Shown: positions 855-64,000 of the stretch, one piece after another
Layout: the number at the start of each line of letters is the position of its first letter
Position numbering within the stretch: the first letter of the stretch is position 1
From: Macrostomum lignano
Taxonomy: Eukaryota
Reading direction: 5' to 3'
DNA length: 64,000 nucleotides
NCBI GenBank assembly: GCA_002269645.1
Contig: NIVC01002121.1
Span: 1 to 64,000 of the forward strand
The notes under the pieces: model-generated
Database searches by the model: none
The model's input: the letters and a program-made list of their open reading frames with translations, nothing else
What the model was told of the DNA's origin: nothing
Made by a program: the position numbers and the translations under genes

Positions 855-856
855 AT

Positions 857-1570: not shown

Positions 1571-3043
1571 ATGGCGCGGCGCAATCCAACGGTACACAGA
1601 GACATCAAAGAAACGGTCGGTACTTTCTCGATGGAGAAAGATTTTAACACATTTGTCGACCATTTTGACCTGGTATGTAGGGAATACAACCTACAAAATC
1701 CAGAGAAGGCACAGCTGCTGCCACCTCTTCTCCAAGGTACTGCGCGAGAAATTTACGGCAAGCTGGATGCGGCAACACAGCAAAATTATCCAGCACTAAT
1801 CATTCAACTGCGCGCGCATTTCAACCGTTGCGGCACAAACAGATCAGTGCTGCTGCACAAGTTGCATAACAGAAGGATGCAAGCAACAGAATCCTTCCTC
1901 GCCTTTGTGGACGATATCCGCCAGATAATTAAGGCACTGCATCAGCCACCGCTGCAAGCTGCGGACCAACCACCACTGGGAGCGGCAGAATTGGCCGCCA
2001 GAGAAAGACAACGATTGATGGATCGTGAACAAAACCTCATCCTGCACGTAATAAACAACGCACAGCCGTCACTTCGGGATAGACTTTTGCGTGAAAATAT
2101 CGAAACCGAAGAAGACCTTTTGCGTTGCGGAATGCAATGGGAAGCCAGTGCCCCATTAATGACGACAGGCAACAATGAAGTGCAGAAACTGACGCAGCAA
2201 CTAAACAAGTTAATGCAGCACCAGACAGCTGCTATCGCCGAACAAAAAAGACGAAATGAACAAGCCTCAGCCAGATGTTACTACTGCGGACAAGAAGGAC
2301 ATTATCAGATTAATTGTCCTCATTGGTCAACAAGATACGACAAGCCGCGACAGATATTCAACAATCAGAAGCCGCAGAAACCATGGCAGCACTATCAAAA
2401 TCGCCAACAACAAGGAATGAGACGCTTCGGAAATGATAGACGCTTCGGAAATAATGACCGCTCCGGAAATGATGGCCGCTTCGGAAACGAAGGCCGCTTC
2501 AGAAGTAATGGCTACAGGCCACGCAACGTCAGATACACACAAAGACAGCCGACGCAAGCAATGCCACGATACGCGAATGCCATCACGTACACACCGGAAA
2601 ATGAACAGCAAGAACAGCAAGTGTTCACAATTGACGACTTGGAAATGGACTTCACAGTCCCGGAACTTGACATCAGCTTGATCGAAAAGAAGACGACGCA
2701 CGAGGACAACACTGACAACACAGAAGAGACGAATGAAACCGAAATGATCAAATTAAAAGAGACCACCGGAGACAGCAGAGAAAACAGGAAGAAAGTAAAT
2801 CACAAGACAAGGGAGGAGGCGGAGAGCGACATCGGCAACGAAGAAAAGATGAAAACCGGCGAAGAAAACAACTATGAATCGACAACAGTGGATGACGACA
2901 AAACGAGCATGAAAGACAAAGAAATGAAAGAAGAAGAAGAATGTAGAAGTTACGGCAACGACCACGACTGCGAGGTGCGTGATGACACGAACGACTACCA
3001 AGCCGAAAGAGGAATGCAGGAAGAACGAGAGCGGAGAATCTAA
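1571..3043 (+). CDS. gag: Gag (capsid-like domain, CCHC knuckle CYYCGQEGHYQINC, RFGN repeats, acidic linker); separated from env-pol by a 1-bp deletion
   Basis: Ty3/gypsy capsid-type N-terminus and zinc knuckle. Copy 2 reads through this point (GAACTGAGA versus GAAC-GAGA at ~3026). Confidence 0.9.
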   Translation: MARRNPTVHRDIKETVGTFSMEKDFNTFVDHFDLVCREYNLQNPEKAQLLPPLLQGTAREIYGKLDAATQQNYPALIIQLRAHFNRCGTNRSVLLHKLHNRRMQATESFLAFVDDIRQIIKALHQPPLQAADQPPLGAAELAARERQRLMDREQNLILHVINNAQPSLRDRLLRENIETEEDLLRCGMQWEASAPLMTTGNNEVQKLTQQLNKLMQHQTAAIAEQKRRNEQASARCYYCGQEGHYQINCPHWSTRYDKPRQIFNNQKPQKPWQHYQNRQQQGMRRFGNDRRFGNNDRSGNDGRFGNEGRFRSNGYRPRNVRYTQRQPTQAMPRYANAITYTPENEQQEQQVFTIDDLEMDFTVPELDISLIEKKTTHEDNTDNTEETNETEMIKLKETTGDSRENRKKVNHKTREEAESDIGNEEKMKTGEENNYESTTVDDDKTSMKDKEMKEEEECRSYGNDHDCEVRDDTNDYQAERGMQEERERRI

Positions 3044-3090
3044 GTTCCGACAGCGATCAAGGCTACGAAATACAATGGAAAGATGAAGAA

Positions 3091-6000
3091 ATGGAAAAAG
3101 AACAGGTGAAAGAAAAGCCGAGTTCCGACAGCGACGAATGCTACGAGATCCGATACAAACGAAATGGTGAAGCCTATATTCAAACGGTCGACTACAAGAC
3201 AGAGAAAAGATACCAAACGCAATGGAGTGAAACAACGGAAACATCGGAAGAAGCCGCAGACGAAGATAATGAAATAACCAAAAAGCAAAGCGAATCAGAA
3301 GCCTTCCGCCTGGATCAGCCAATGGAACAACCGAAAGAATATGATGCGGACATGGAAGATAACGAATGGCGATCGCAGCCAATGCCAGCAAGGACAACGG
3401 CAAAATCCAAGAAGTGGAAAAACTGGCTATTCTGGATCATCGTGATACTACTGATAGCAGTAGTCGCCAAAGCAACGGCAACGGAAAAGCCAATGATTTG
3501 TCCAACGGATGCGCATATCCAACCGATGATCTACAAGATACCAACCGACATCAAATGCAGTTACTTCAAGACAAACCAGACAAAACCAAAGAAGATTACA
3601 CTCGATCTCTACAAGGCTAACATCAAGAAGCATCGACAACACGGGATAGTATGCTTCAGAGACAAGCACCTGGTGGAAAAAGTTTGGCGCGGACAATGGA
3701 ACCGGATCCGATTTAAACAACATGAGCTACATGTGTCGCACGCGGAATGCCTACAATGGAATCAAACACTATTTTCAAAGGATGGTGAACTGGAACCAGA
3801 TGAGAAGGTCGGCAACGCACAGCTGTTCAGAACAAAGAATTCAGCCAACGGTCGATATATTCACTTCTTCGGAAAATGGAAAGAATATATGGCACGCAAC
3901 AGCTACTTGATCAGAAATATTCCATTCTACTACAATCCGTACGAGAAAATGGAATCGTTACAGCTGCAACTAAGCGAATGTCGATACAGTGAAGGATGGT
4001 GTCCAACGCCGATTCTACGGAAGGAAGAACTACACAGTCTACCACTGAGTCCAACATATCATCAAGACTATCGATGGCAGATTGAGCACAGAGCACAATC
4101 ACACTATGAGGAACCGTACAAATCACGACAATACTTCTTCGCGTGGGAAGTTGAGCCGGAAATTGACTGCAAGCTTCAAAAGTATCACACAGTTGAAGGA
4201 GGACTACTGTCAAATACGTTTTTGGCAAAGTCAGGAGACTTGGCACTGACGTTTCAAAAGAAACCAGTCGAGCAAAAACTGAAATGCAAGGATACAGACA
4301 AGACACTATTCATCTCGGAACAAGAGATACCAGTCTACGTAAAGGATGAAGACAAACAAACCTTCTTGGCAATCATCAATGGAACGTATCAGCAACAAGA
4401 AAAACAGAATAGAAGACGACGTGACATCGAACGTCCCAAACTGGTGTCAAACCGGCTGTTGTCAGCAAAGATAACGGCTTTGGATCACAATCTACACAAC
4501 CAGTTAAACCACTTGCATCGAACACTGGTCCAGCTAACTTGCAAAATGCACGCAATCAACTTAAATTATGCCAGACAAAACTACTATGTCAACCCTACGA
4601 TGACTTTTCGTAAAATCACCGGAATGACGAACGTTTTGGCAGTTCCAATATACGAGCATCTGTTGATATACAAGTGCACGCCGATACAGCACTTTAACAT
4701 CTTGCCGTCAAACACGTCAACAACCTGCTACGATAAGCCAAGGATTGAAGCGTTCTACGAAGGAAAACGAATTCAGGGATTCTTGGACACGGTACACAAC
4801 ATCATCGTTGGCACCGCAATACCGAGACCTTGCACCACGGCAGTAAACTACTATCAACTGGACAATGCACTACACGTCATCAAAACAACTGGAACGACAG
4901 CAAACGTCACAGAACCGGAAGTAATCGTCGACGAAAACTACGACATGGAGGATTTGAAAATCCGATTCAACAGAACGAAGTATACGCCATTCGCCGATAT
5001 CCAACTTGACGAGATAACACCAGGATGGACGATCAACGACTTCTTGCAAGCGTTCATCACCCAACGCAAGATGATTCACCAGCTGTTCACAAGAAAGGAC
5101 AAAGGAACCGGGACAGGAAGATTTCCCGTCCTTGTTTCAATGGACAGCGCCATCAAATCATTTTGGACAAATAGCTTCTGGGAGCTGCTCAATGGAAGAG
5201 GCAGTCTCTATCAAGGATTCATCTTCTACGGTGCTTGCATTGTGTGGATTGTCACGGCAATCTTCATCATTTCATCGATCGTACGGTGCTTCAGTCAAAC
5301 TTGTCCAAGAGCTAAGAAGACAGTGAATGCCATAATGCAAAGAACGACAACGGAAAGCGACAACAGTTTAGAACTAACAGAAACTGCACATTGTGAGGTT
5401 CAAGGGCAACCGACACTAGCAACGCGGCTATATCCATCGATTCCGACAACACCAACGGCACCAAGGATACAACCACCCAACTATCAAGCAGAACAGCACG
5501 AGCCAAAATGGCCGGAAAACTACGTCTGTACGCTACACGCCGAGATTGGCAAAGCAATGGCTCAGGTCATTGTCAACAACTTGCCATGTCGAGCACTACT
5601 GGATTCAGGCAGCTCGATCACAGTCATCTCGCAACAATTATGCAACAAGCTACGACTCGCGGTACGACCAGCAGCAATCGCAGTTGCAGGAGCAGGAGGA
5701 CATTCACTCAACATCCTAGGAAAAGCAGATATCGACTTGAAAATTGCTAATAAACAGCTGACGGTCCCGACGTACATCATCGACAGACTACCAAACCAAG
5801 ACGTCATCGTTGGAATCGACACGTTCAAGCAGCTTCAACTACCATTGACCTTCGACTTCAACAAGCAAACGTTTAGGATCGACACGGTGGAGCAACCGCT
5901 GATCAACCAGATTCGAGTACTACCGAAAGTAACTCTGCAGCAAGATGTCATTATCCAGCCTGAAAGCGCATGCTGGGTCAGAGCGAAAACGACCAGCGCG

Positions 6001-9000
6001 GCAGATGAAGCAATGATATTTGATCCACACAGGAGAGTCACGGCAAAACATCAAATCATGATGCCTACGGCACTAGTGCTGGTTGCAAAGGATAAGCAAC
6101 TGCCAGTACAAATCTTCAACCCGAACACAGAAACGGTTCATCTACGACAAGGAATGTGCATCGGTCATCTCAACACCCAAGCATCGGTTATGCTGATTGA
6201 ACAAGCGACTCCACGACTAACAGAGGAAGAATTTCAAAAGAAGATCAATTTGGATGACAGCCCGATTACGGAACAGCAAAAGAGGAAAGTTCGACAGCTG
6301 TTGTGGAAGTACAACGAAGCCTTCTGCCATCATGATTACGACATCGGACGAGCCAAGGACATCAAACAGGAAATCAAACTTCTGCCGCACACGGAACCAA
6401 TTCAGTGCAAGCCGTACCCGATCGCCAAGCATCTGCAACAACACTTTGACGAAATCATCGATAAAATGCTAAAGCACGGCATCATCAGCAAAGCTATTTC
6501 GGCTTACTCCTCACCGTGCCTACTGGTACAGAAGAAGGAGACAAACGAAAGACGACTCGTATGCGACTTCAGACTGTTGAACAAGTACATACCGACGGAT
6601 CAGCAAAGCCTACCGAAGATCTCCGAACTACTAGCAAAGCTCAACACGGCAAAATTGTTCACGGTGTTCGACCTACGTCATGGATTTTGGCAAATTGAAA
6701 TCGAGAAAGAGTCACGACAGTACACGGCTTTCAAAACCTACAATGGACAAGTATACGAGTACAATCGATCGCCGATGGGACTTAGCAACAGCCCAGCAAC
6801 GATGAGTCGACTAACAGCATACATGCTAGCAGGATGCACGAACCTGCTGCACTATGTCGACGACATTTTAGCCTACGGAGAGGATTTCGAGCGACTCTAC
6901 GAAGCTACGGAGAAGGCCCTAGCGCTCATTCAACGCCAAGGTCTGAAGCTACAACCAACTAAATGCAAATTCTTCCGAGACAACGTGCGTTACCTGGGAC
7001 ATCAGGTGACAGCCAAAGGAATCTCACCGGACCCAGACAACGTGGAAAAGGTGAAGAAGTTTCCTACGCCAACCAGTATAACGAAGGTCCAATCATTCCT
7101 TGGACTTGCGCAATACTTCAGGAAGTTCTTACCTAACTTCGCAAAGACAGCAAAGCCACTGTACGACCTGCTCAAGTTCGACAAATGGAAGCAAGACAAC
7201 TGGACACAGAGACAACAGGAAAGTTTCGACGAAATCAAACGACAGCTGACATCAGACGCACTGCTACAGCATCCGGACTTCGACAAGCCCTTCATCATCG
7301 AGACAGACGCCTCAGGAACGGGACTCGGAGCAGTCCTACTACAGGAAACCGAGGACAAGAAGGAACGACCTATTGCCTACGTCAGTCGAGCACTCAAACC
7401 AAATGAAACAAAGTGGTCAGCTACGGAACGAGAGCTACTAGGAGTCTTGTTCGCCCTGCGACAGTTTCATTACTACATCTATGGTTCTCCAATACAGACG
7501 ATAGTACGCACGGATCATGCACCATTGACCTACGTCGTAACTACAAAAGGACAGACCAACAACCGACTCATCAGAATGACACTCAAGATCCAGGATTACA
7601 ACTACAAACTCGTCTACAAACCAGGAATTACCAACAAAGCCGCGGACGCCCTGTCAAGAGCCTATGAAGTCAACGCCATTCATCCAATCCCTAACATCAA
7701 GGAGTTGGTGGATGAAACCGAGCGCGACAACTTCTACCAAGCGGTTAAAGACGACGACAAGAACATCAAACTCAGTCCCATGGAACGAAAATTCCTACGC
7801 AAGCAACGACAACACCTAACAATCAATAAGTCACGGCTCTACTGGATGAGCGACAATAAACCCAAGATCTACATACCATATTCGTTTCGGCAAGCAATTC
7901 TCAACGAGCTACACGACAACCCACTCGCTGGACACCTGTCGGCAGCAAAGACCATCGCGAGAGTGGAACAATACTACTTTTGGCCAACTATGTACGGCGA
8001 CATCAAGCAGTATTGCAACAACTGCCATTCATGTGCTGCATCAAAGACAGGACGACGACAGAAACCGCAGCTACAGTCCATTCCGAAGTCGACTACAATG
8101 GACTGTCTAAGCATCGACATCACCGGACCGCTACCACCGAGCTGTCTCCAGGGCATCGCCTACACCTACATTCTAACCGCCTTGGATATCTTCTCGAAGT
8201 TTGCTATCGCCATACCGATACCGGACATCACAGCTCAGACAGTGGCAATGAGTTTCTTCAACGAAATCATTTGCAAGTACGGCACGCCGAAGAACCTCAC
8301 ATCGGACAACGGATCGCAGTTTACATCGCAACTGTTTCAGCAAGTCGTAAGGATTCTCAACATTACGCAGATCTACACATCGACCTACAATCCGAAGGCA
8401 AACATGGTTGAACGGTTTCACCGCAACCTGCACGAGATGATTACACATTTCGCGCACCAACAGCCGGAAGACTGGATCATCTACCTGCAATCTGTAACAA
8501 TGGCCTACAACAGCGCTATTCATCGATCAACGGACAATACGCCATTCTTCCTAATGTTTGGACGAGACTTCCAACCGCCGAATCTGCTCGCACAGCAATT
8601 GCTACCATCGCAGTACGTGGAAGTACCGACTTCCATTCAGAAATTCGTCACGCAACTACACCTCGCATGGAAGATCGCCAAGCACAACATTGACAACCAG
8701 GTGGCTCTGACCACCGGCAACGACGCGAGATCGACAACCCTGACGGCCGGCGACATCGTCTACCTACACTACCCGCCACAGCAGACGCATAAACATGCAC
8801 AGAAGTACAAAGGACCCTATCGAGTGGTCCAACTAACGTCACCAACAACGGCACGCCTGGCTAATGTACAAGATCCACATCAGCACCAGTTCTACGTACA
8901 CATTCATCGACTAAAGAAGATCAACACTGACACAGCGACGTTTCTACCGACATTAGACAACGCTGATCGCACGCGTTCAACGAACCGCCACATCGCGACG

Positions 9001-9066
9001 AAGCACGAGGAGACTCAAACGACAGATGTGAGCCAGCCACATGGCTACAACCTACGACCACGCTAG
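3091..9066 (+). CDS. pol: Env-Pol polyprotein: signal peptide, class III-like fusion glycoprotein, TM, then PR, RT, RNase H, integrase
   Basis: LLDSGS (5602), YVDD (6853), ETDASG, HHCC, D-D-E (DITG/DNG/VER), GPY, terminal YNLRPR. Upstream: hydrophobic WLFWIIVILLIAVVAKA, RRRR site at 4411, TM at ~5218-5283. Confidence 0.93.
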   Translation: MEKEQVKEKPSSDSDECYEIRYKRNGEAYIQTVDYKTEKRYQTQWSETTETSEEAADEDNEITKKQSESEAFRLDQPMEQPKEYDADMEDNEWRSQPMPARTTAKSKKWKNWLFWIIVILLIAVVAKATATEKPMICPTDAHIQPMIYKIPTDIKCSYFKTNQTKPKKITLDLYKANIKKHRQHGIVCFRDKHLVEKVWRGQWNRIRFKQHELHVSHAECLQWNQTLFSKDGELEPDEKVGNAQLFRTKNSANGRYIHFFGKWKEYMARNSYLIRNIPFYYNPYEKMESLQLQLSECRYSEGWCPTPILRKEELHSLPLSPTYHQDYRWQIEHRAQSHYEEPYKSRQYFFAWEVEPEIDCKLQKYHTVEGGLLSNTFLAKSGDLALTFQKKPVEQKLKCKDTDKTLFISEQEIPVYVKDEDKQTFLAIINGTYQQQEKQNRRRRDIERPKLVSNRLLSAKITALDHNLHNQLNHLHRTLVQLTCKMHAINLNYARQNYYVNPTMTFRKITGMTNVLAVPIYEHLLIYKCTPIQHFNILPSNTSTTCYDKPRIEAFYEGKRIQGFLDTVHNIIVGTAIPRPCTTAVNYYQLDNALHVIKTTGTTANVTEPEVIVDENYDMEDLKIRFNRTKYTPFADIQLDEITPGWTINDFLQAFITQRKMIHQLFTRKDKGTGTGRFPVLVSMDSAIKSFWTNSFWELLNGRGSLYQGFIFYGACIVWIVTAIFIISSIVRCFSQTCPRAKKTVNAIMQRTTTESDNSLELTETAHCEVQGQPTLATRLYPSIPTTPTAPRIQPPNYQAEQHEPKWPENYVCTLHAEIGKAMAQVIVNNLPCRALLDSGSSITVISQQLCNKLRLAVRPAAIAVAGAGGHSLNILGKADIDLKIANKQLTVPTYIIDRLPNQDVIVGIDTFKQLQLPLTFDFNKQTFRIDTVEQPLINQIRVLPKVTLQQDVIIQPESACWVRAKTTSAADEAMIFDPHRRVTAKHQIMMPTALVLVAKDKQLPVQIFNPNTETVHLRQGMCIGHLNTQASVMLIEQATPRLTEEEFQKKINLDDSPITEQQKRKVRQLLWKYNEAFCHHDYDIGRAKDIKQEIKLLPHTEPIQCKPYPIAKHLQQHFDEIIDKMLKHGIISKAISAYSSPCLLVQKKETNERRLVCDFRLLNKYIPTDQQSLPKISELLAKLNTAKLFTVFDLRHGFWQIEIEKESRQYTAFKTYNGQVYEYNRSPMGLSNSPATMSRLTAYMLAGCTNLLHYVDDILAYGEDFERLYEATEKALALIQRQGLKLQPTKCKFFRDNVRYLGHQVTAKGISPDPDNVEKVKKFPTPTSITKVQSFLGLAQYFRKFLPNFAKTAKPLYDLLKFDKWKQDNWTQRQQESFDEIKRQLTSDALLQHPDFDKPFIIETDASGTGLGAVLLQETEDKKERPIAYVSRALKPNETKWSATERELLGVLFALRQFHYYIYGSPIQTIVRTDHAPLTYVVTTKGQTNNRLIRMTLKIQDYNYKLVYKPGITNKAADALSRAYEVNAIHPIPNIKELVDETERDNFYQAVKDDDKNIKLSPMERKFLRKQRQHLTINKSRLYWMSDNKPKIYIPYSFRQAILNELHDNPLAGHLSAAKTIARVEQYYFWPTMYGDIKQYCNNCHSCAASKTGRRQKPQLQSIPKSTTMDCLSIDITGPLPPSCLQGIAYTYILTALDIFSKFAIAIPIPDITAQTVAMSFFNEIICKYGTPKNLTSDNGSQFTSQLFQQVVRILNITQIYTSTYNPKANMVERFHRNLHEMITHFAHQQPEDWIIYLQSVTMAYNSAIHRSTDNTPFFLMFGRDFQPPNLLAQQLLPSQYVEVPTSIQKFVTQLHLAWKIAKHNIDNQVALTTGNDARSTTLTAGDIVYLHYPPQQTHKHAQKYKGPYRVVQLTSPTTARLANVQDPHQHQFYVHIHRLKKINTDTATFLPTLDNADRTRSTNRHIATKHEETQTTDVSQPHGYNLRPR
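3424..5283 (+). other. env: Envelope glycoprotein domain (gB-like class III fusogen) embedded between gag and protease
   Basis: Signal peptide, Cys-rich ectodomain (CRYSEGWC), furin site, long amphipathic helix ending LTC..NP, CYDKP and RPCT motifs, C-terminal TM. Confidence 0.8.
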
Positions 9067-9080
9067 AGTTTAGAGAACAA

Positions 9081-9157
9081 CCCCGTGTAGTGACCGGGAT
9101 AAAGAATAGCACTACAGCTTCGCAAGCTTGTCGTAAAAGGCGACTAATCCGAGCGAC
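9081..9157 (+). ncRNA. Conserved structured cis RNA (H-type pseudoknot plus two hairpins) between the pol stop and RING-A
   Basis: Six copies (9081, 20607, 36253, 42695, 57254, 62859); compensatory TGTAGTG/CACTACA to TGTAGAG/CTCTACA change. Confidence 0.65.
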
Positions 9158-9186
9158 ACAAAGACAGCGACAAATTGACGACAATT

Positions 9187-9855
9187 ATGGGCAACGCACT
9201 GTCGAAACAGGCGCCCCAGCCTCAGCAGCTATATGACTGCCCGATATGTTTAACTGATGACTTGGCTGTCAAGCCACCGACTATTTGCATCAATGGACAT
9301 AAAGTTTGCGGACAATGTTTAAGTGATTCACACTATATTCAGCCCTGGCAGAGTTGTCCCCTCTGTAGAGATAGTTTGCGACAATGTGCCTATTGTTATT
9401 CTTGGCGCACGTTTCAATATTGTAACCACCAACATTTTATTTGCATGCACTGTTTGAAGCAAACCGCTAGTAGGGGCATTATAGGATGCCCCTTATGTAA
9501 CAGTATGCCCCGCGAAAACACTTTTAAGAAATGGTGTCGGATTATACCTGACCCAGCGCGTTGTTTATCCGTTTACACTATGCACACCTTAACCGCTATG
9601 AGTATCGAACGGCGGCTGGAGTTTTGGCCTGTACCTCGCTTCGTTCAGCGGTCGCGACGACAGCTACTATTATATGCTCATAGAAATCAAGGATTTTTGC
9701 GTCATTTGTCACCCTTGGAGATTGAGCGACATTTGCGGCAGTTTTTGCATGACCACGAATCATTTCACTGGACGCTACACGTATACTGCCACGCGCTTAA
9801 ACGATTAGTGCTCTCACGTAGCTATTTTATTTGGCTTTTTAGGTCTCACCGATAG
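9187..9855 (+). CDS. RING-A: tandem C3HC4-type RING protein with N-terminal MGNALSK myristoylation motif
   Basis: CPIC..CINGHKVCGQC..CPLC and CAYC..CNHQHFICMHC..CPLC; conserved in several copies. Confidence 0.85.
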   Translation: MGNALSKQAPQPQQLYDCPICLTDDLAVKPPTICINGHKVCGQCLSDSHYIQPWQSCPLCRDSLRQCAYCYSWRTFQYCNHQHFICMHCLKQTASRGIIGCPLCNSMPRENTFKKWCRIIPDPARCLSVYTMHTLTAMSIERRLEFWPVPRFVQRSRRQLLLYAHRNQGFLRHLSPLEIERHLRQFLHDHESFHWTLHVYCHALKRLVLSRSYFIWLFRSHR

Positions 9856-9925
9856 AACATATGCTTGTTACGTATCTTGAATAATCCTCAATCGTTCTAA
9901 CTATACCTATACCTATCGCCCACAG

Positions 9926-10557
9926 ATGACCGAGATGGATACCTGCCCCTGCTGCCTCGAGGCACGGAGCCGATGCTCCCGACTTGTGAATGGGGGCACC
10001 AGGTGTGCTTCCCCTGCGACGAGCGGGCGCGAGAAATTGGCGACGTGACGATCCTTACCGCCTGCCCCGTCTGTCGCAGACCGCGGGTCCAATGTGCCCT
10101 TTGCGGCGACCAGCCCAATGTACGACTCTGTTCAAATCGGCATTGGGTGTGTTTCAGCTGTCTTCAGCGGTACGGTGCACGAGACATCATGACGTGCACC
10201 GTGTGCCTGGCTCCGCTGTCCAACACAGCATCCGTACTACTGGCACCGATGCTCGCCGTACCGGAGCTAACGCTGGCGGAGCCGGATGAGCTAACCCTGG
10301 AACAGCTGGCCGTCGCCGTACGAACGTGGCCATGGCCGCTTCAGCATCAGGCCGACTGGCGGTGGTTACTAGACATCGCCAGGACTATGGTGCGTACAGC
10401 AGAACCGCTTACGACCATAGAGGCCTATCTGCTTTTGCTGGAGCGGACCGAGGATCCGCGATTCACTAAGTTTCAGTCGCTGTACTGGGCAGTGGCATCC
10501 CTGGTGGCGCGAACCACGCATCAGGTGAGCAGCCTGCTCAGGACAAGCTTCGGCTGA
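9926..10557 (+). CDS. RING-B: tandem RING protein, paralogue of RING-A (1-bp deletion at ~9965 in this copy)
   Basis: CPCC..CEWGHQVCFPC..CPVC and CALC..CSNRHWVCFSC..CTVC; intact 210-aa version at 37098-37730. Confidence 0.8.
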
Positions 10558-10760
10558 ATGCCTCGGCAGCAGCGCGAGGACAGCAGGTATCCCCGGCAGA
10601 AGACATGATTAACTTTAACTGAGCGTGGACTCAACACCACTAACCTTTATTAACACACAATGTATATTACGTGCATATATGTTAATAAAGAGAATTATGT
10701 AACCAATTTAAAGTTAAAGTATGGAATAATTCAATTACCCAAGATTTTTATTTCATTGTT

Positions 10761-10799
10761 AAAACTCGGGACGAGTTTTTTCGTAAAAAAGGGAGATTT
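10761..10799 (+). promoter_or_regulatory. Hairpin AAAACTCG-GGA-CGAGTTTT followed by polypurine tract AAAAAAGGGAG
   Basis: Directly precedes each family-G 3' LTR seen with its internal flank. Confidence 0.8.
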
Positions 10800-11663
10800 T
10801 GTAGAGTGTTCTACCTCCCGTTAAAAAAGGAAAAAAGAAGATAATCGTATAATACTACTATAAGTAAGTAAGTACACGCATGTGCGCCTAAGCTTTGAAT
10901 GAATCACGCTACCAGAAAAAGATGTTACCAGAATAATACGCCATGAGCCATTTTCCCCTTTTAGCGCAACACGTGAATTGTCATGATACTATTTTGGATC
11001 AAAAACTTGTCTATAAATACAAGCGATCTGAAGCGGTACCGGAGCCATTCTCCCCACGGAAGAGGAGCGCTCCGAAGAGGAAGCCTTAGGAGGACTTCCT
11101 GATCTACCAAGTCAATCGAGACTCGGTCGAGTTGTTGCGGTAAGCCTTCCTTATTTGCGCCCGTTGTGTTAGAGACGTCTCGCTCAAGTCTATTGAGACT
11201 TGAGTCTAATTGAGTCTGTTGAGACTCTTGAGTCTGTTTAGACTCCATTGGTTGCAGTCTCCAGAAGGACTGCCCCTGATAGATCTTAGAGGACTATCAG
11301 TGGTTTCCGGAGCTATACCTAGAGTGCATAGAGGCACTGCTAGAAGAAGGAGGCTTAATTTAGACCGCAGTTTGGCGCAGGGTACCCATTGTTGCTACGA
11401 GGCCTCTGATTGGTCCTGACGGAAGATACCGGCCGGAAGAACTTATCGGAAGTACAAGAGGAACCAGGACCAGAGCAACTGAAGAATCAAGGCGCCTGAT
11501 CTACGAGATCTACTGACAAGTTCCTAGCGAGAACTACTCAAGAAATTCAAATCCGGATTAAAGGTAATTGAATACCTTCGTTTGACTTACTGGGTTGCCT
11601 AGCTGTTGAGCTAGAAGTGATTGTTCCTTGATTATCGAAAGTCGGGTAATAAGGAACACATCA
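10800..11663 (+). repeat. 3' LTR, subtype A (864 bp)
   Basis: TGTAGAG...CATCA, preceded by PPT. Confidence 0.95.
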
Positions 11664-14450
11664 CTCGGACTCATCAACAACGCGAAAGCAAGGATCATTG
11701 TTCGTGAGGATTACTGTCCGAAGTTTCACAAGAGCAGACCTGTACCGTTTGCAATGAAGAAGCTTATTGAGGACGAACTCAATAACCTTGTCAACGAAGG
11801 GATCATATCAAAGCTGAGTTCATCAGATTGTGCTTCTCCCATTGTGCCAGTGCTGAAGAAAGATGGGAAATCAATCAGGATCTGCGCGGACTTCAAGAGG
11901 ACTATGAATCCACAGCTGGAAGTGGACAAGTATCCACTGCCTCGACAGGAGGAAATGTTTGCTACTTTGAATGGTGGGAAGTACTTTTCCAAGCTGGACA
12001 TTTCTCAAGCTTTTCTGCAGCTGGAGTTGGAAGAAAGCAGCAGAAAATTTACGACCATCAATACACACTTGGGATTGTATCAGTACAATCGACTAACAAT
12101 GGGCTTGGCTTCTGCTCCTGCTCAGTTCCAAGAAGCGATTGAGAAAATTCTCTGTGGACTGGAAGTTGTTGCTTACATCGATGATATTCTAATATCGGGA
12201 AGGTCACTCGAGGAACACGATCAGAAACTGCATAAAGTGTTGAAGACACTGCAATACAGGGGTGTCAGACTCAACAAGGACAAGTGCAAGTTTCGGCTGC
12301 AAAAAGTAGAATTCATGGGTCATATTATCAATAATGACGGACTGCACCCATCTCCTGACAAGGTAATTGCTGTGAGAAACGCACCGAATCCTACCAGTGT
12401 GTCCGAGGTTCGATCCTTGGTTGGACTTATTAACTACTATGGGAAATTCATACCCAACTCATCAACTGTTCTGGCGCCACTCAACCGACTCCTGAGAAAC
12501 GATGTGACATTCAGCTGGAGCAGTCAGTGCCAAGCTGCTTTGGACTCTGTGAAGTCAATTCTGACATCGGACCGGCTGCTGGTGCATTTCGACCCAAAGA
12601 AGCCGATCATCCTACACACTGATGCTTCGAAGTATGGGCTCGGATGTGTTCTGTCCCACACAATGCCAGGTGGTGCCGAGCTGCCTATCAGTTACGCATC
12701 AAGGACACTGTCACCAGCGGAGCAGAATTATTCTCAGCTGGAAAAAGAAGCGCTATCAATCATATTCGGGATCAAGAAGATCCATCAGTATCTATTCGGG
12801 AACAAGTTTATTTTGGTAACAGACCATAAGCCTCTAATTACTATTTTCGGAGAAAAGAAGGACATCCTGAGCATCGCAGCTAGCAGATTGCAACGTTGGG
12901 CAGTCTTGCTCTCTGCTCATCAGTACGAGATAAGATTTCGAAAGACAGAGGACCATGGCAACGCTGATGCGTTATCCAGGTTGCCATTGCCAAGTTCGAC
13001 GTCCCGAGTGGACAAAGTCATGGAACGTCGACTTCAAGAACTGCCTATCACCGCTGTCGAGATTCGTCGAGAGACAGCCAGGGATCCTATCCTGAGCAAG
13101 GTAATCAGGTTCTGCCAGAACGGTTGGCCGGAGAAATGTGAATTTGAGCTTGAGATATACCGTCAGAAAGGAAACGAACTCTGTCTTGAGCAGGGAGTCA
13201 TCTTCTGGGGTATACGCGCCATCATTCCATCTAGCCTCCAACACCAAGTTTTGGACCTGCTGCACGAAGGACACCCTGGGATTGTATCGATGAAATCGAT
13301 CGCTCGCCTGCACGTTTGGTTTCCGGGAATCGACCAACAGATTGAAAGAGCTGTGAAACAATGCAAGGGATGCGAACTGCAGCGAAGCAAACCACCAGAA
13401 TCTGCTGTTCACCCGTTGAGTTGGCCAGAAAAGCCATGGACGAGACTTCAGGCAGATTTTTTCGGACCGTGTTTCGGATTCAATTGGTTGGTAATCGTGG
13501 ATGCCACATCAAAATGGGTAGAGGTTTTTCCAATGAAAGTTTCCAGTGCCGCGAACACCATTCAACGCTTTCGAGAGACATTTGCTCGGTTTGGAATACC
13601 TCGACAGATACTGACCGACAATGGAAGCCAGTTTGCATCACAGGAGTTTGCTGAATTCACCAAGCGAAATAACATCCATCACATCTTCAGTGCTGTAGGA
13701 CATCCAAGAACCAACGGGCTCAGTGAGCGAATGGTTCAAACAGCCAAGAATGCGATCAGAGCAGGCATGAAGAGCCACGGTGATGCCATGCTGAGCCTGC
13801 ACAATTTCCTATTCCGCTATAGAAGCACGCCTCATAGCACGACGGGCAAGTCACCTGCCGAGATGATGCTTGCGTATGCAAGACGGACAAAGCTGGACTT
13901 CCTGAAGCCAGACACATACGGGAGAGTCCTGGATTCGCAAAGTAAGCAGATGATGCGCCGGGAACATATTCCTCACCGAGAGTTTCAGGCTGGAGATATA
14001 GTGCTAGCTCTTGATTTCAGGAGGGAAAAAGAAAACAAGTGGGCTCAAGCCAAAGTGTTGAAACAGACTGGGCCGCTGTCCTACCACGTGGAAGTCAACG
14101 GACGAATCTGGAAACGACACGTGGATCATCTGATCAAATCTGAAACCGAAGTTGTGCCCCAGCCACAGTGTGATTTCGACACAGAACTAACGCAAGCACA
14201 CAATGCCAAGAATAGCTACAAGTTGAAAAAGGATGCAAAAGAGGAAGCTGAATCGACGGGACCAAATCTAGAGCATCATGGTCAGACTGGCAAGTCTTCG
14301 CGGGCCATAGACAAAACTCGAAAGTTAGCCGCGTCATCAAGCTTCGATATCAAGCCAAAGGACGGCCAAGATGTCAAACAGCATCCGAACCAACGTGTTT
14401 TGCGTGACCGGTCAAAACTGAAGAAACCGGATTTTTTTGTTGCGAATTAA
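11664..14450 (+). CDS. pol: 5'-interrupted pol (RT-RH-IN) of an unrelated Mag/K02A2.6-like gypsy element
   Basis: RPVPFA, DKYPLP, YIDD, TDASKYGLG, LHEGHPG..C..C, TDNGSQF, ERMV. The true 5' boundary is the family-G LTR end. Confidence 0.9.
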   Translation, partial: LGLINNAKARIIVREDYCPKFHKSRPVPFAMKKLIEDELNNLVNEGIISKLSSSDCASPIVPVLKKDGKSIRICADFKRTMNPQLEVDKYPLPRQEEMFATLNGGKYFSKLDISQAFLQLELEESSRKFTTINTHLGLYQYNRLTMGLASAPAQFQEAIEKILCGLEVVAYIDDILISGRSLEEHDQKLHKVLKTLQYRGVRLNKDKCKFRLQKVEFMGHIINNDGLHPSPDKVIAVRNAPNPTSVSEVRSLVGLINYYGKFIPNSSTVLAPLNRLLRNDVTFSWSSQCQAALDSVKSILTSDRLLVHFDPKKPIILHTDASKYGLGCVLSHTMPGGAELPISYASRTLSPAEQNYSQLEKEALSIIFGIKKIHQYLFGNKFILVTDHKPLITIFGEKKDILSIAASRLQRWAVLLSAHQYEIRFRKTEDHGNADALSRLPLPSSTSRVDKVMERRLQELPITAVEIRRETARDPILSKVIRFCQNGWPEKCEFELEIYRQKGNELCLEQGVIFWGIRAIIPSSLQHQVLDLLHEGHPGIVSMKSIARLHVWFPGIDQQIERAVKQCKGCELQRSKPPESAVHPLSWPEKPWTRLQADFFGPCFGFNWLVIVDATSKWVEVFPMKVSSAANTIQRFRETFARFGIPRQILTDNGSQFASQEFAEFTKRNNIHHIFSAVGHPRTNGLSERMVQTAKNAIRAGMKSHGDAMLSLHNFLFRYRSTPHSTTGKSPAEMMLAYARRTKLDFLKPDTYGRVLDSQSKQMMRREHIPHREFQAGDIVLALDFRREKENKWAQAKVLKQTGPLSYHVEVNGRIWKRHVDHLIKSETEVVPQPQCDFDTELTQAHNAKNSYKLKKDAKEEAESTGPNLEHHGQTGKSSRAIDKTRKLAASSSFDIKPKDGQDVKQHPNQRVLRDRSKLKKPDFFVAN

Positions 14451-20593: not shown

Positions 20594-20708
20594 ATTTCGA
20601 GAACGACCCGTGTAGTGACCGGGATAAGAATAGCACTACAGCTTCGCAAGCTTGTCGTAAAAGGCGATTAATCTGAGCGACCAAGACACTAACTAAGTGA
20701 AGACGATT

Positions 20709-36238: not shown

Positions 36239-36358
36239 AGTTTCGAGAACAACCCCGTGTAGTGACCGGGATAAAGAATAGCACTACAGCTTCGCAAGCT
36301 TGTCGTAAAAGGCGACTAATCCGAGCGACACAAAGACAGCGACAAATTGACGACAATT

Positions 36359-40828: not shown

Positions 40829-43800
40829 AACAAGAAAGTTTCGACGAAATCAAACGACAGCTGACATCAGACAAACTGCTACAGCATCCGGACTTCGACA
40901 AACCCTTAATTGAGACAGACGCTTCAGGAACGGGACTCGGAGCAGTCCTACTACAGGAAACCGAAGACAAGAAGGAACGACCTATTGCCTACGTCAGTCG
41001 AGCACTCAAAACAAATGAAACAAAGTGGTCAGCTACGGAACGAGAGCTACTAGGAGTCTTGTTCCCCCTGCGACAGTTTCATTACTACATCTATGGTTCT
41101 CCAATACAGACGATAGCACGCACGGATCATGCACCATTAACCTACGTCGTAACTACGAAAGGACAGACCAACAACCGACTCATCAGGATGACACTCAAGA
41201 TCCAGGATTACAACTACAAACTCGTCTACAAACCAGGAATTACCAACAAAGCCGCGGACGCTCTGTCAAGAGCCTACGAAGTCAACGCCATTCATCCAAT
41301 TCCTAACATCAAAAGAGTTGATGGATGAAACGGAAAACGACAACTTCTACAAGGCGGTCAAAACCTACGACAAAAACATCAAACTCAATCCCATGGAACG
41401 AAAATTCCTACGCAAGCAACGACAACACCTAACAATCAATAAGTCACGGCTCTACTGGATGAGCGACAATAAACCCAAGATCTACGTGCCATATTCGTTT
41501 CGGCAAGCAATTCTCAACGAGCTGCACGACAACCCACTCGCTGGACACCTGTCGGCAGCAAAGACCATCGCGAGAGTGGAACAATATTACTTTTGGCCAA
41601 CAATGTACGGCGACATAAAGCAGTATTGCAACAACTGCCATTCATGCGCAGCATCAAAGACAGGACGACGACAGAAACCGCAGCTACAGTCCATTCCGAA
41701 GTCGACCAAAATTGACTGTCTAAGCATTGACATCACCGGACCGCTACCACCGAGCTGTCTCCAGGGCATCGCCTACACCTACATCCTAACCGCCTTGGAC
41801 ATCTTCTCGAAGTTTGCTATCGCCATACCGATACCGGAAATCACAGCCCAGACGGTGGCAATGAGCTTTTTCAACGACATCATTTGCAAGTACGGCACGC
41901 CGAAGAACCTCACATCGGACAACGGATCGCAGTTTACGTCTCAACTGTTTCAGCAAGTCGTAAAGATTCTCAACATCACGCAAATCTACACGTCAACGTA
42001 CAACCCGAAGGCTAATATGGTGGAAAGGTTTCACCGCAACCTGCACGAGATGATTACACATTTCGCGCACCAACAGCCGGAAGACTGGATCATCTACCTG
42101 CAATCTGTAACAATGGCCTACAACAGCGCTATTCATCGATCAACGGACAACACGCCATTCTTCCTAATGTTTGGACGAGACTTCCAGCCGCCAAATTTGC
42201 TCGCACAGCAATTACTACCATCGCAGTACGTGGAAGTACCGACTTCCATTCAAAAATTCGTCACGCAACTACACCTTGCATGGAAGATCGCCAAGCACAA
42301 TATTGACAACCAGGTGGCTCTGACCACCGGCAACGACGCGAGATCGACAACCCTGACGGCCGGCGATATCGTCTACCTGCACTACCCGCCACAACAGACG
42401 CATAAACATGCACAGAAGTACAAAGGACCCTATCGAGTGGTCCAACTAACGTCACCAACAACGGCACGCCTGGCTAATGTACAAGATCCACATCAGCACC
42501 AATTCTACGTACACATTCATCGACTAAAGAAGATCAGTACCGACAAAGCAACGTTTCTACCGTCACTGGACAACGCTGATCGCACGCGATCAACGAACCG
42601 CCACATCGCGACGAAGCACGAGGAGACTCAAACGACAGACGTGAGCCAGCCGCACGGCTACAACCTACGACCACGCTAAAGTTTCAAGAACAAACCCGTG
42701 TAGAGACCGGGTCAGAATAGCTCTACAGCTTCGCAAGCTTGTCGTAAGAGGCGACTAATCCGAGCGACTTAAGACTACAAGACTACAAGTGGCGACAATT
42801 ATGGGCAACGCACTGTCGAAACAGGCGCCCCAGCCTCAGCAGCTATATGACTGGCCGGTATGTTTAGCTGATGACTTGGCTGTCAAGCCACCGACTATTT
42901 GCATCAATGAACACAAAGTTTGCGGACAATGTTTAAGCGATTCTCATTATATTCAGCCATGGCAGAATTGTCCCCTCTGTAGAAGTATTCTACGACAGTG
43001 CGCCTATTGTAATTCTTGGCGCACGTTTCAATACTGTAACCAAGAACATTTTATTTGCATGCACTGTTTGAAGCAAACCGCTAGTAGGGGCCTTATAGGA
43101 TGCCCCTTATGTAATAGTATGCCCCGCGAAAGCACCTTTAAGAAATGGTGTCGCATTACACCGGAACCAACGCGTTGCTTATCAGTTTATGATATGCACA
43201 CTTTAACCGCCATAAGTATCGAGCGGCGACTGGAGTTTTGGCCAGTACCTCGCTTCGTCCGGCGGTCGCGTAGACAATTACTACTATACGCTCATAACAA
43301 TCAAGGAATTTTGCGTCATATGTCACCTGTGAAGATTGAACGACATTTCCGACAATTTTTGCACGCTCATAATGCGTTTCACTGGACATTACATGTATAC
43401 TGCCACGTGCTTAAACGATTAGTTCTCTCACGTAGTTGTTTCATATGGCTTTTCCGGTCTCGCCAGTAGAACATATACTTGTTACGTATCTCGAATAATC
43501 CTCAATCGTTCTAACTACAACTACACCTATCGCCCACAGATGGCCGAGATGGATACCTGTCCCTGCTGCCTCGAGGCACGGGAGCCGAGGCTCCCGACTT
43601 GTGAATGGGGGCACCAGGTGTGCTTCCCCTGCGACGAACGGGCTCGAGCAATTGGCGAGGTGACGATTCTTTCCGCCTGCCCGGTCTGTCGCAGGCCGCG
43701 GGTCCAATGTGCCCTTTGCGGTGACCAGCCCAATGTCCAAGTCTGTACGAATCGGCATTGGGTGTGTTTCAGCTGTCTTCAGCGGTACGGGGCACGTGAC

Positions 43801-56735: not shown

Positions 56736-59583
56736 GAGACTTCCAGCCGCCAAACCTATTGGCACAGCAACTACTACCATCGCAGTACGTGGAAGTACCG
56801 ACTTCCATTCAAAAATTCGTCACGCAACTACACCTCGCATGGAAGATCGCCAAGCACAATATTGACAACCAGGTGGCTCTGACCACCGGCAACGACGCGA
56901 TATCAACAACCCTGACGGCCGGTGATATCGTCTACCTACACTACCCGCCACAGCAGACGCACAAACATGCACAGAAGTACAAAGGACCCTATCGAGTGGT
57001 CCAACTAACGTCACCAACAACGGTACGCCTGGCTAATGTACAAGATCCACATCAGTACCAGTTCTACGTACACATTCATCGACTAAAGAAGATCAACACT
57101 GACACAGCGACGTTTCTACCGACACTAGACAACGCTGATCGCACGCGTTCAACGAACCGCCACATCGCGACGAAGCACGAGGGGACTCAAACGACAGACG
57201 TGAGCCAGCCGCACGGCTACAACCTACGAACACGCTAAAGTTTCGAGAACAAACCCGTGTAGAGACCGGGTCAGAATAGCTCTACAGCTTCGCAAGCTTG
57301 TCGTAAGAGGCGACTAATCCGAGCGACTCCACAAGCGAACTCTACAATCGACTTCATAACTGCAACTGACGCTTGGCTAACGACTATGGGCAATGCACAG
57401 TCTAGACTGGTGACCCAGCCAAGGCAACTCTATGAATGCCCTGTCTGTTTGGAAGATGACCTGCATATAAAACCACCAACCATTTGTATAAATAATCATC
57501 GCATATGCGGAACGTGCTTGTGTGACGCGCATCATATCCAACCCTGCCAAAGCTGCCCCCTATGTAGTACACCTTTTCACGTTCAATTTTGAACAAAGTC
57601 CAGTTCTAAAAAAACTAGCGGAAATTCAATTCAGACAATTCCGACTGGGGACAGTTTTGTCTATGGCTAAACCTCGCTTCCGTAGCAGAATGTTTTGAAC
57701 TGGGGTTTGTTGCCCCAGTCTGAATTGTCTGAATTGAATTTCCGCTAGTTTTTTTAGAACTGGACTTTGTTCAAAATTGAACGTGAAAAGGTGTAGTCTG
57801 ACGCAGTGCGCCTATTGTTACTCGTGGCGCTCCCCGTACCAAATCTGCCCCGGTACCAAATCTGTGCAAGTCGGCACTGGGCCTGTGCCGGCTGTCTTCA
57901 TAGGTACGGTGCGCGAGATATCCAAACGTGCACCGTGTGTCTGGAGGCGGTGATGCATTCCACGGCACTGCTGCTGGCTACTATGGCGGTAGTGCCGGAG
58001 TTGTCGCTCACCGAACCGGACCTCCTAACCTTGGAGCAGCTGGCGATCGCCGTGCGGTCATGGCCGTAACCGCTCCAGCATCAGGCGGCGTGGCGGCATC
58101 TGCTTGGCATAGCTAGAGACCTGGCGAGACATCAACCCGGTCTCACCGCCATCGACGCCTACTTGAAGCTGCTGGAGCGGACGGAGGACACTCGCTTCGT
58201 ACGGTTTCAGCCGTTGTACTGGGCAGTGGCGTGCCTAGCTGTGCGAACCGAACAGCAGATCGGCACCCTGCTCCAGATAAGCTTCGGCTGAACGTCTCGG
58301 CGGCGCATTCGGCAGGCAGGCGTATGTGAACGGACGGCCAGATGCATTTTACTGGACATAACTGTAGATAGATACGGATAGTATTAAGCCTTACTAACAA
58401 GTACATACTGTACAGTTCGCAGATTTAAAAAATATATATACTCCCTGAACAAATATTTCAAGATACCTGAAACTTTTACCTCGAAAGCCTTCTTATGTGT
58501 AAAACTCGGGACGAGTTTTTTGTAAACATGGGAGATTTTGTAGAGTGTTCTACCTCCCGTAAAGAAGACATAAAAGTGTTAATGTACTACTCACACATTT
58601 TATTTAGTAGTAAATTGAAGAGCATGAATAAAGGTATGCTTTGAACTATGCGTAGATTCTGACTAACCAATAGGAAAAGAGAGACCTCGAGCATGCTAAA
58701 TTTAGAAATCACCCAATCACGTGTAACCTGCACTTGTCAAACTCAAACCCCAGGAGAAATGCATCATTCAACCGTACGCACGTGAACCAATCAAATGTAA
58801 CTAAAAATAACTCGAAAGCGATAACCAATCACGCGTTTTTACACTAAACCAATGGAGTAACTTTCTAACCTGCCATGTTTGACAGCAACCAAACCGTGAC
58901 CTTTTTGATAGTTGAAGAGTTGGACCCACGTGACATTGTGAGGGTCCATTTGCCTATAAATACAAGTGGTCCGGAACGGACCCGGAGCCACAATTCCTCC
59001 GGAAGGAGAAGAGCTCCGAAGAGGAAGCCACAGTCGGACTTCCAGGACCAAAACTCGGTCGGTTGTTGCGGTAAGCCTTCCTTATTTGCGCCCGTTGTGT
59101 TAGAGACGTCTCGCTCAAGTATAGTGGAACTTAAGTTTATTTGAGTCTGTTGAGACTCTTGAGTCTGTTTGGACTCCACTGGTTGCAGTCTCCAGAAGGA
59201 CTGCCCCTGATAGATCTTAGGAGATTATCAGTGGTTTCCGGAGCTATACCTAGAGTGCATAGAGGCACTGCTAGAAGAAGGAGGCTTAATTAAGACCGCA
59301 GATTGGCGCAGGGATCCCATTGTTAATTCGGAAGCTTCCAATTGGTCCGAGCAACAGAATCCGGCCGGAACTATTTGAAGAAGGAAAGAAGACTCGGACC
59401 CGAACTACGAACGACAGTCACAAGAGACTACAGACGAGATCTACCCGAGATCGACATTGAAGAGACACTTCATAAGGACTCAAGGTAATTGAATACCTTC
59501 TGTTGGCTTACTGGGTTGCCTAGCTACTGAGCTAGAAGTGATTGTTCCTTGATTATCGAAGTCGGGTAATAAGGAACACATCA
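56736..59583 (+). mobile_element. Family-G 3' remnant: IN tail, pseudoknot, RING-A/RING-B deletion fusion, LTR (58539-59583, B-type U3)
   Basis: Starts at FGRDFQPP codons directly after an LTR end. Confidence 0.9.
57570..57793. mobile_element. MITE, 224 bp, Tc1/mariner-type
   Basis: 72-bp perfect TIRs (CACCTTTTCACG.../...CGTGAAAAGGTG), TA on both sides, inserted in RING-A. Confidence 0.9.
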
Positions 59584-62302: not shown

Positions 62303-64000
62303 ACGGACAATACGCCATTCTTTCTAATGTTTGGACGAGACTTCCAGCCACCAAACCTATTGGCACAGCAACTACTGCCATCGCAATATGTGGAAGTCCC
62401 GACGTCCATTCAAAAGTTCGTCACGCAACTACACCTAGCATGGAAAGTGGCCAAGCACAACATCGACAATCAGGTGGCTCTAACCACCGGAACCGACACG
62501 AGATCGAGAACTCTGACAGGCGGCGACATCGTCTACCTGCACTACCCGCCACAGCAGACGCATAAACATGCACAGAAGTACAAAGGACCCTATCGAGTGG
62601 TCCAGCTGACATCACCAATAACGGCACGCCTGGCTAATGTGCAGGATCCTCATCAGCACCAATTCTACGTGCACATTCATCGACTAAAAAAGATCAACAC
62701 TGACACGATGACGTTTCTACCGTCACTAGACAACGCTGATCGCACACGTTCAACGAACCGCCACATCGCAACGAAGAACGAGGAGACTCAAACGGCGAAC
62801 GAGAGCCAGCCACACGGCTAAAATCTGCGACCTCGTTAAGCTACAAAAAAAGACAAAACCCGTGTAGAGACCGGGTCAGAATAGCTCTACAGCTTCGCAA
62901 GCTTGTCGTAAGAGGCGACTAATCTGAGCGACTTCAAACTTCGAGCAACGACGACAATGGGCAACGCACTGTCCAAGCAGGCGCCCCAAGTACAGCAACT
63001 ATATGACTGCCCTGTCTGTCTGGAAGAAGATTTGTGGATAAAGCCACCAACCATTTGTATAAATAATCATCGCATCTGTGGAACATGCTTACGTGACGCG
63101 CATTATATTCAATCTTGGCAACTCTGCCCCCTATGTAGGAGTAGTCTGACGCAGTGCGCCTATTGTTACTCATGGCGCACCTTTCAATACTGTCGTCACA
63201 ATCATTTTATCTGCATGCAGTGCTTGAAACGCACCGCTAGCAGAGGCATCATAGGGTGCCCTGTCTGTAACACCATGCCGACGGACAGCACTTTCAAGAA
63301 GTGATGTCGCATAAAGCCGGACGTATCACGCTGTTTATCTGTATATAATATTCATACCCTGACAGCCATGAGTATAGAACGGTTGCTGGAGTTTTGGCCA
63401 GTACCCCGTTGTGCTCAGCGCTCGCGCTACGAATTGATTCTTTACGCACATAATCATCAGGGCATATTACGACATATGCTACCCCTCGAGATAGCACGGC
63501 ATTTGCAAAATACTTTACAAGCCCATAACGCCTATCATTGGACACTGCATATTTATTGTCATGCGTTAAAACAGCTTATTTTATCACGCAGTTACTTCAT
63601 ATGGCTTCTACGGTATCCACAATGAGCTCTGTTACGCACAAATGCAAGCACTATGAAGGATGTACTAATAAATCATGACCCTACAACCCACAGATGAACG
63701 CTGACGACGCATGCCCCTGCTGCTTGGAGACGCGGGACGAAACGGTCCCGACATGCGAATGGGGACACCGAGTGTGTCTCTCTTGCGACACCGCGGCCCG
63801 ACAGCTGACCGGCGAGATCACCATGCTGTCGGCGTGCCCAACATGTCGCAGGGCGAGGGTCACATGTGCATTGTGCGGCGAGCAGCCCCAGTACCAAATC
63901 TGTCCAAGTCGGCACTGGGCCTGTGCCGGCTGTCTCCATAGGTACGGTGCACGAGATATCCAAACGTGCACCGTGTGTCTGGAGCCGGTGATGCATTCCA
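62303..64000 (+). mobile_element. Family-G 3' remnant: IN tail, pseudoknot, RING-A (62957-63625, TGA at 63302), RING-B from 63694 running off the window
   Basis: Collinear with copy 1. Confidence 0.9.

Follow-up and report, generated by a model that had tools for sequence, protein, structure and literature searches.

A covarying double-pseudoknot RNA behind the pol stop codon of Macrostomum lignano Gypsy elements and at the 5′ ends of non-LTR retroelements

The carrier element and its motif copies

The window (the whole stretch analysed, 64,000 nt of Macrostomum lignano contig NIVC01002121.1) is a dense array of Ty3/gypsy elements, present as whole, partial and solo LTR copies. Here, we describe an RNA fold of ~70 letters carried by an M. 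lignano Ty3/gypsy clade with gag, an envelope-like region, pol and two RING genes (RING-A and RING-B). The features of the first element, followed by the other motif copies in the window, are as follows.

1-854, 5′ LTR
1451-3043, gag
2986-9066, + strand, env-like/PR/RT/RNaseH/IN frame
9064..9066, + strand, stop codon of this frame, 15 nt before stem 1
9080, + strand, 5′ end of a downstream RNA as predicted from non-LTR copies; the conserved U (9086) lies 6 nt further on
9082..9085, + strand, stem 1, 5′ strand, pairing with 9095-9098
9086..9094, + strand, conserved U (9086, probably loop 1) and stem 2, 5′ strand, with a single bulged A (9093)
9095..9098, + strand, stem 1, 3′ strand
9099..9108, + strand, loop 3, a variable portion and then conserved AGAAUA (9103-9108)
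9109..9116, + strand, stem 2, 3′ strand
9116..9128, + strand, helix X, 9116-9118 with 9126-9128 around a 7-nt loop
9130..9147, + strand, conserved hairpin GUCG-UAARAGG-CGAC, then UAA
9148-9157, tail TCCGAGCGAC, particular to subfamilies A and B
9148..9186, + strand, variable spacer, G-poor and AUG-free
9187..9855, + strand, RING-A frame (222 aa), with a weak RING match below the Pfam cut-off
9900..9928, + strand, branch-point-like word and YAG adjoining the RING-B AUG (9926), a candidate splice acceptor
10800..11663, + strand, 3′ LTR, 99.8% identical to the 5′ LTR
20603..20678, + strand, motif copy, subfamily A2, with one G-C to G-U change in the hairpin
36250..36326, + strand, motif copy, subfamily A
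42691..42765, + strand, motif copy, subfamily B, with a swapped stem 2 pair
57250..57324, + strand, motif copy, subfamily B
62855..62929, + strand, motif copy, subfamily B

The two LTR pairs compared were 99.8% and 99.5% identical, and such near-identity indicates that the Gypsy element of the window transposed recently. The UniRef name of a 98% identical protein is Macrostomum lignano retrovirus-related polyprotein. The envelope-like region lies between gag and protease and not past integrase, an unusual gene order for Ty3/gypsy (window 2986-9066), and has a weak Pfam match to a Monjiviricetes fusion protein (E 3.7e-5, below the cut-off). Directly after the 3′ LTR, a separate RT/RNaseH/integrase element occupies 11610-14450.

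The letters and both stems of the motif were found at 9082-9147 (+ strand). A preliminary description had placed its start at 9081; the letters stand, and stem 1 begins at 9082. The window holds 6 occurrences of the 17-nt motif head where chance alone predicts 0.16, and a covariance model search recovered the same 6 copies with no further strong match. The change of stem 2 from TGTAGTG/CACTACA to TGTAGAG/CTCTACA, reported earlier at 42695, 57254 and 62859, is present in all three copies; these share other letters as well, which suggests one subfamily and a single swap, not three separate events. One element copy in the window has a deletion at about 54681-54689 that takes out the motif together with the RING-A start.

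Across the 764-Mb M. lignano genome there are about 100 motif copies (77 exact matches to a motif 22-mer; 104 matches to a 20-mer at ≤2 mismatches, 100 of the 104 listed). A search with RING-A as the query, which does not select for the motif, yielded subfamilies C and D, and 14/20 stretches retrieved in this way contained the motif. In subfamily C, stem 2 takes yet another, third form. Between subfamilies A and D, the motif is 96% identical, compared with 67-70% for the end of pol, 52-53% for RING-A and 44-53% for the spacer; of the ~77 nt first described as nearly invariant, the tail at 9148-9157 is particular to subfamilies A and B. The motif starts 10-18 nt past the pol stop in 8/8 Gypsy representatives. 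It was absent from ten more distant Gypsy loci (27-37% integrase identity) and, in the M. lignano genome, from seven hairpin-only matches and six APE-element loci. Two loci (L006 and L196:287-361) have the motif and the RING-A start behind RING-B-like sequence instead of pol, so the cassette can move by recombination. Among individual copies, the decay changes in L082 are mostly of CpG type, and L081 has lost its X loop between two AGCT repeats.

RING-A begins with MGNALS. The MGNxxS start, presumably a myristoylation-like pattern, occurs in subfamilies A and B and not in C and D. No homologue was found among 82 candidates at E 0.001, and Atlas matches at 0.90-0.91 were weak RING leads. In 25 of 26 distinct spacers (32-70 nt, AUG-free), the first AUG past the motif is that of RING-A. 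Readthrough and a frameshift pseudoknot were rejected as routes into RING-A because in-frame stops lie at 9088 and 9145 on the path from pol and because the RING-A AUG occurs in all three frames relative to pol (8 representatives). A splice acceptor for RING-A was likewise rejected, since the spacers have no conserved acceptor and 3/26 contain no AG at all.

At RING-B, a branch-point-like word and YAG adjoin the AUG, with an identical CAG-ATG junction, at 6 window places (9900-9928 and near 21433, 37091, 43533, 55013 and 63687) despite sequence divergence, and RING-B is probably reached by cis- or spliced-leader trans-splicing. The sequencing-run search returned 24 runs, all as contigs, with no holder listed as RNA. 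Contigs from four runs (four studies) covered 30/30 bins of 200-10790, their RNA origin being a guess; among the matches listed they had no joint into RING-A. Contigs cannot show RNA ends, and this outcome was given no weight either way.

Fold and covariation

Covariation was assessed in 29 families with an AGAAU anchor, and the 8/37 families without it were set aside. A model with a 4-bp stem 1 and an 8-bp stem 2 gave a mean of 10.69 against 9.36 with permuted and refitted 3′ strands (0/5000), where the families are kin and the counts are not to be taken as probabilities. All six stem 2 pairs tested (six/six) change on both sides across 29 distinct rows, with 51 cells of two-sided change against 16.5 after shuffling and ≤14 in slid controls, in an alignment that was fitted to the model and leans towards it. 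The pair at the stem 1 junction is G-C in 15 families and C-G in 9. The first stem 2 pair is U-A in 23/29 and barely varies; given this and pseudoknot geometry in general, the conserved U more likely belongs to loop 1 than to stem 2. The stems first proposed from the window alone, CCCG/CGGG and TGTAGTG/CACTACA, are borne out.

Downstream of the first pseudoknot, the fold continues with a second. Of the 29 families possessing AGAAU, 26 have the start of AGAAUA 23-24 nt upstream of GCUU; insertions in loop 3, hairpins included, fall 5′ of AGAAUA. Helix X has 3 bp (A-U, G-C, then U-G in 17 families or C-G in 12) and a variable loop of 6-10 nt that in most relatives pairs with a strand past UAA (helix Y; 4.52 pairs vs 3.52 when permuted, 0/5000). 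The fold is therefore two tandem pseudoknots, with the GUCG-UAARAGG-CGAC hairpin in the last loop. The middle hairpin of the preliminary description is conserved only as the 3-bp helix (A-U, G-C, Y-G) with a variable loop, as part of this second pseudoknot. Helix Y keeps its register in subfamily C and in the majority of non-LTR copies. It is shifted in A and B, while D and invertebrate iridescent virus 6 (IIV-6) lack it; in the window copy at 9116..9128 it is weak and out of register.

No covariation of the 3′ hairpin was found among the families compared, the sole support for its pairing being a single change from G-C to G-U. Its invariance outside Macrostomum is partly a search artefact, because the searches required the hairpin; looser viral scans for hairpin variants yielded 4, 66 and 3 loci, of which just two, both already known, were real. 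Nested-only folding of four window copies (+ strand) gave no stability signal (z −0.07 to −0.82), so the support for the fold is comparative and not thermodynamic. The covariation in unrelated elements strongly supports selection on the pseudoknot as a functional cis RNA, as had been proposed from the window.

Distribution and the 5′ boundary of non-LTR copies

An exact 20-mer scan of metagenome contigs returned 53 loci, of which 44 had further motif features, some decayed. The other nine (L094, L108, L115, L128, L135 and L139-L142) were antisense matches in bacterial genes and were dropped, as were 30/33 loci from genome contigs, antisense within bacterial coding sequence; 36 antisense bacterial loci served as controls. 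AGAAU, which was outside the search pattern, starts 22-28 nt upstream in 21/29 metagenome families vs 4/36 of these controls. The overall count of 29/37 families includes four from Macrostomum and four found with GAAT in the pattern.

Viral and genome contig scans added five loci (L143, L144, L153, L163 and L171). The first is IIV-6, which we take to be the same as Chilo iridescent virus, and has the motif at L143:2978-3051, between 206R and the next ORF. L144 is a 6.9-kb RNA virus record in which the RdRp frame ends ~25 nt before the motif; the complete fold is kept, and the remaining 120 nt hold no long frame. Its RdRp matched one insect-genome protein and no solved structure. The last three are motif-bearing retroelement sequences that had been binned with bacterial genomes (two of them titled Sedimenticola) and are probably host DNA. 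A 17-mer that includes the loop particular to the subfamily hit 9 viral loci, none with the full motif, and no match was found in the phage collection searched. In two loci (L133 and L098) the motif is repeated in tandem, with units of 74 and 76 nt.

Directly behind the motif lies an APE endonuclease frame in five loci and an RT frame in one (6/12 proteins scanned), which suggests RTE-like and R4-like elements. The carriers as a whole (non-LTR, Gypsy, DNA virus and RNA virus) have no common Gag or RT lineage.

The non-LTR copies begin precisely at the motif. In one metagenome family, six insertions have unrelated sequence upstream and become alike at the first G of stem 1 (−61). L163, a complete element of ~507 nt, has a 12-nt target-site duplication flush against its first stem 1 G and again after a CCAA tail, ~507 nt on; a screen for target sites found a repeat of at least 9 nt in 5/36 loci, and L163 was the sole convincing case. 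The distance from the element end to the conserved U is 6 nt for the L095 family, L163 and L120, and 5-6 nt for the L091 family. Non-LTR elements copy their RNA by target-primed reverse transcription; since the copies begin at the base of stem 1, the RNA started there. The equivalent window position is 9080. In the non-LTR copies only, the motif shares with HDV-like ribozymes an element 5′ end flush with the first helix base. A twister-like cut at UAA is excluded, because the copies retain everything 5′ of it.

Proposed function and comparison with known RNAs

The motif probably defines a new RNA 5′ end, which in the Gypsy element would be that of a subgenomic RING-A mRNA. Our favoured reading, held at a little under even confidence, is self-cleavage by an undescribed class of ribozyme. 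A compact double-pseudoknot RNA would set the 5′ end at the first stem 1 base, and the entire fold would remain part of the 3′ product, a feature of HDV-like and hatchet ribozymes. For non-LTR elements, the cut would release the element RNA from a host co-transcript. In the Gypsy clade, cutting a fraction of transcripts behind the pol stop would leave an uncapped, LTR-polyadenylated RNA whose first AUG is the RING-A start; by analogy, its end would be at 9080, made by RNA chemistry and not by an exonuclease, and the product would be translated. The weakened helix Y in Gypsy A, B and D and in IIV-6 is what attenuation would predict, and it could also be simple decay. More tentative is the full proposition, that one undescribed self-cleaving class extends across animal non-LTR elements and DNA and RNA viruses and is attenuated in the env-bearing Gypsy clade for a RING mRNA.

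Self-cleavage is favoured because the structured RNAs described at this site in non-LTR elements are ribozymes, because the size and complexity of the motif fit ribozyme candidate criteria, and because slow ribozymes before ORFs are tolerated in linear virus genomes, with modest cap-independent translation. HDV-like ribozymes are placed at the 5′ end of R2, L1Tc, baggins and RTE (PMC6765202), cleavage by the 5′ twister of the RTE element Perere-3 supported translation of a reporter (PMC8501958), and Chilo iridescent virus is listed among carriers of HDV-like ribozymes (PMC8256844). PMC10085705 gives 50-80 nt, pseudoknots and conserved positions as candidate criteria, and PMC13725137 describes slow ribozymes before ORFs as tolerated in linear RNA viruses and used for cap-independent translation. 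The tandem arrays with the motif as unit (L133 and L098) were also counted in favour. Against self-cleavage, no catalytic nucleotide or known ribozyme core could be mapped onto the motif, a cut inside a recently mobile element would destroy its genomic RNA, and the ten non-hammerhead candidate motifs assayed in PMC10085705 showed no cleavage. A flush 5′ end is equally expected of a class 3 exonuclease-resistant RNA (xrRNA; PMC12397905), and an internal promoter could yield one as well.

An xrRNA of new fold is the next candidate and is held to be clearly less likely. The pseudoknot with its docked 3′ domain would stall XRN1/XRN2 and leave a stable 3′ RNA from stem 1; the Gypsy clade would obtain its RING-A subgenomic RNA out of decay intermediates, leaving intact genomes unharmed. 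Being non-destructive, it is compatible with recent transposition. It also suits the position right past a stop, both in the 8/8 Gypsy representatives and in L144, where no long frame follows. PMC6299227 places xrRNAs in 3′ UTRs and intergenic regions, before coding subgenomic RNAs, with a P1 that can match the 5′ end. Yet the topology of the motif is unlike that of class 1/2 or class 3 as described in PMC12397905, frameshift pseudoknots by themselves do not stall Xrn1 according to PMC10321173, and no case of a pseudoknot xrRNA in a retrotransposon was found in the titles and abstract starts of the literature searched. Ribozyme and xrRNA, named without ranking in the preliminary description, are the two readings left from its list, and self-cleavage, exonuclease-block and IRES readings can combine.

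A translation element only (an IRES or reinitiation helper for RING-A and for uncapped retroelement RNAs, with the 5′ end made otherwise) is improbable. The AUG-free spacers, the first-AUG position of RING-A in 25/26 and the lack of a conserved acceptor (3/26 spacers AG-free) would suit it, as would the coding frames close behind the motif in non-LTR copies and an unvarying hairpin that could bind a conserved host factor. It leaves the flush element boundary unexplained, however, and L144 keeps the full fold with no long frame behind. Factor-less intergenic IRESs have a fixed spacing and frame to the start, whereas both vary here.

It is quite doubtful that the motif is an already published ribozyme that went unrecognised here, for example the HDV-like ribozyme of RTE or of Chilo iridescent virus. 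The host range (RTE 5′ ends and the same iridovirus) mirrors that of HDV-like ribozymes, and the CUAA before the closing strand resembles HDV J4/2. HDV-like ribozymes follow the order P1-P2-P3-L3-P3′-P1′-P1.1-P4-J4/2(C)-P2′, with a 7-bp P1 starting at G, but the covarying helices of the motif are not in this HDV-like order (P1, P2, P3, P1.1, P4). A descriptor of the order, run without a positive control, matched 2/19 families in sense, 0/19 in antisense and 0/4 Macrostomum subfamilies. The Rfam check suggested in the preliminary description placed no family on the motif: Rfam 15 gave 0 matches in the window, only two miRNA matches around the motif (E 3.6 and 6.1), and no match covering the motif among 20 and 12 related loci. 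Six 15-mer spellings of the motif had no occurrence in the literature searched.

An internal promoter, packaging or reverse-transcription signal is just as doubtful: a promoter would also give a flush 5′ end, and CpG-rich conserved words could be factor sites, but the stems covary as the sequence changes, an RdRp virus, which has no DNA stage, also carries the motif, and the carriers have no common Gag or RT lineage. The packaging signal and reinitiation element proposed earlier likewise fit badly, because the carriers share no Gag and often have no upstream frame, and because non-LTR elements start with the fold and one DNA and one RNA virus contain it. Mimicry of an LTR end was rejected, as stem 2 resembles the LTR start in its first letters only.

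The RNA family is real, widely spread and, as far as the literature searched goes, apparently undescribed; no description of the motif was found there, and there is a small but real chance that the family is already in print elsewhere. The novelty is the RNA family, and its likely job has known parallels. About ten small self-cleaving ribozyme classes are known. Three xrRNA classes are known (PMC12397905). Either outcome, ribozyme or xrRNA, would add a fold. If true, the proposal would explain the precise 5′ end of some promoter-less non-LTR elements, show that an RNA module has passed among non-LTR elements, an LTR element and a pair of unrelated viruses, and add a third route, beside splicing and readthrough, to the expression of 3′ accessory genes in LTR elements.

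The known ribozyme cores did not match, in agreement with the preliminary description. The HDV-like ribozymes of R2, L1Tc, baggins and RTE resemble the motif in their exact position at the non-LTR 5′ end, their double pseudoknot, the retention of the fold on the 3′ RNA, their listing in the same iridovirus and a proposed aid to uncapped translation. The motif, whose activity is putative, differs in helix order and in having no P3-L3-P1 core and no Rfam match. The twister T-variants of Perere-3 (RTE, Schistosoma mansoni) likewise lie at a flatworm RTE 5′ end with a target-site duplication beside them and translation downstream, and both RNAs have UAA flanked by two helices. Twister, however, has T1/T2 pseudoknots and cuts in the UAA loop, at the U-A of loop 1, and its 5′ part is lost from copies, whereas motif copies keep all from stem 1; no twister model matched on the motif. 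A twister-P1-like match (L136:210-275, 30.6 bits, below the gathering score of 67.2) lies ~40 nt upstream of a copy with a damaged first pseudoknot; a functional replacement of the motif is possible, and the match is readable either way.

Pistol shares with the motif a short P1 with a loop pseudoknot, an A-rich linker and a G-C right past the pseudoknot. Inspection of 29-37 families of the motif, found in eukaryotes and viruses and not in bacteria, showed neither a P2 nor a G-U at a P3-P2 junction; there was no Rfam match, and the motif has an extra conserved hairpin. PMC4604425 and PMC6154101 describe pistol as P1, P2 and P3 with a pseudoknot between the P1 loop and the P2-P3 junction, cleaved at GU. 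Hatchet is cleaved at the first stem base, like the proposed cut here, and its conserved residues lie in linkers further downstream and in an internal loop. It is set apart by its four stems P1-P4, conserved P1-P2 linker and P2-P3 bulge (PMC4604424), with no pseudoknot of P1 in that description and no Rfam match on the motif. Hammerheads, non-circular permutations included, were rejected: the conserved blocks CUGAnGA and GAAA (PMC10085705) were found next to three stems in 0/19 families in sense and 1/19 in antisense.

The class 3 (plant virus) and class 1 (flavivirus) xrRNAs resemble the motif in lying after a stop or before a gene, in being pseudoknotted and in an end at the base of the first stem. 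Class 1/2 forms a three-way junction with a double pseudoknot and a ring round the 5′ end, and class 3 has stacked P1-P2 with an apical loop that pairs with the 3′ end, Xrn1 halting at the P1 base (PMC12397905). The helix order of the motif is not that of the three-way junction; its first loop pairs mid-motif, and a further domain follows. Its carriers are retroelements and a DNA virus, and a ring is only conjectural. Linear RNA viruses of fungi and plants have hammerhead, delta and twister ribozymes in their UTRs which, like the motif, are small and placed before an ORF, with the genome kept partly intact and with a subgenomic RNA and cap-independent translation proposed; they belong to known classes, whereas the motif is another fold, in an LTR retrotransposon.
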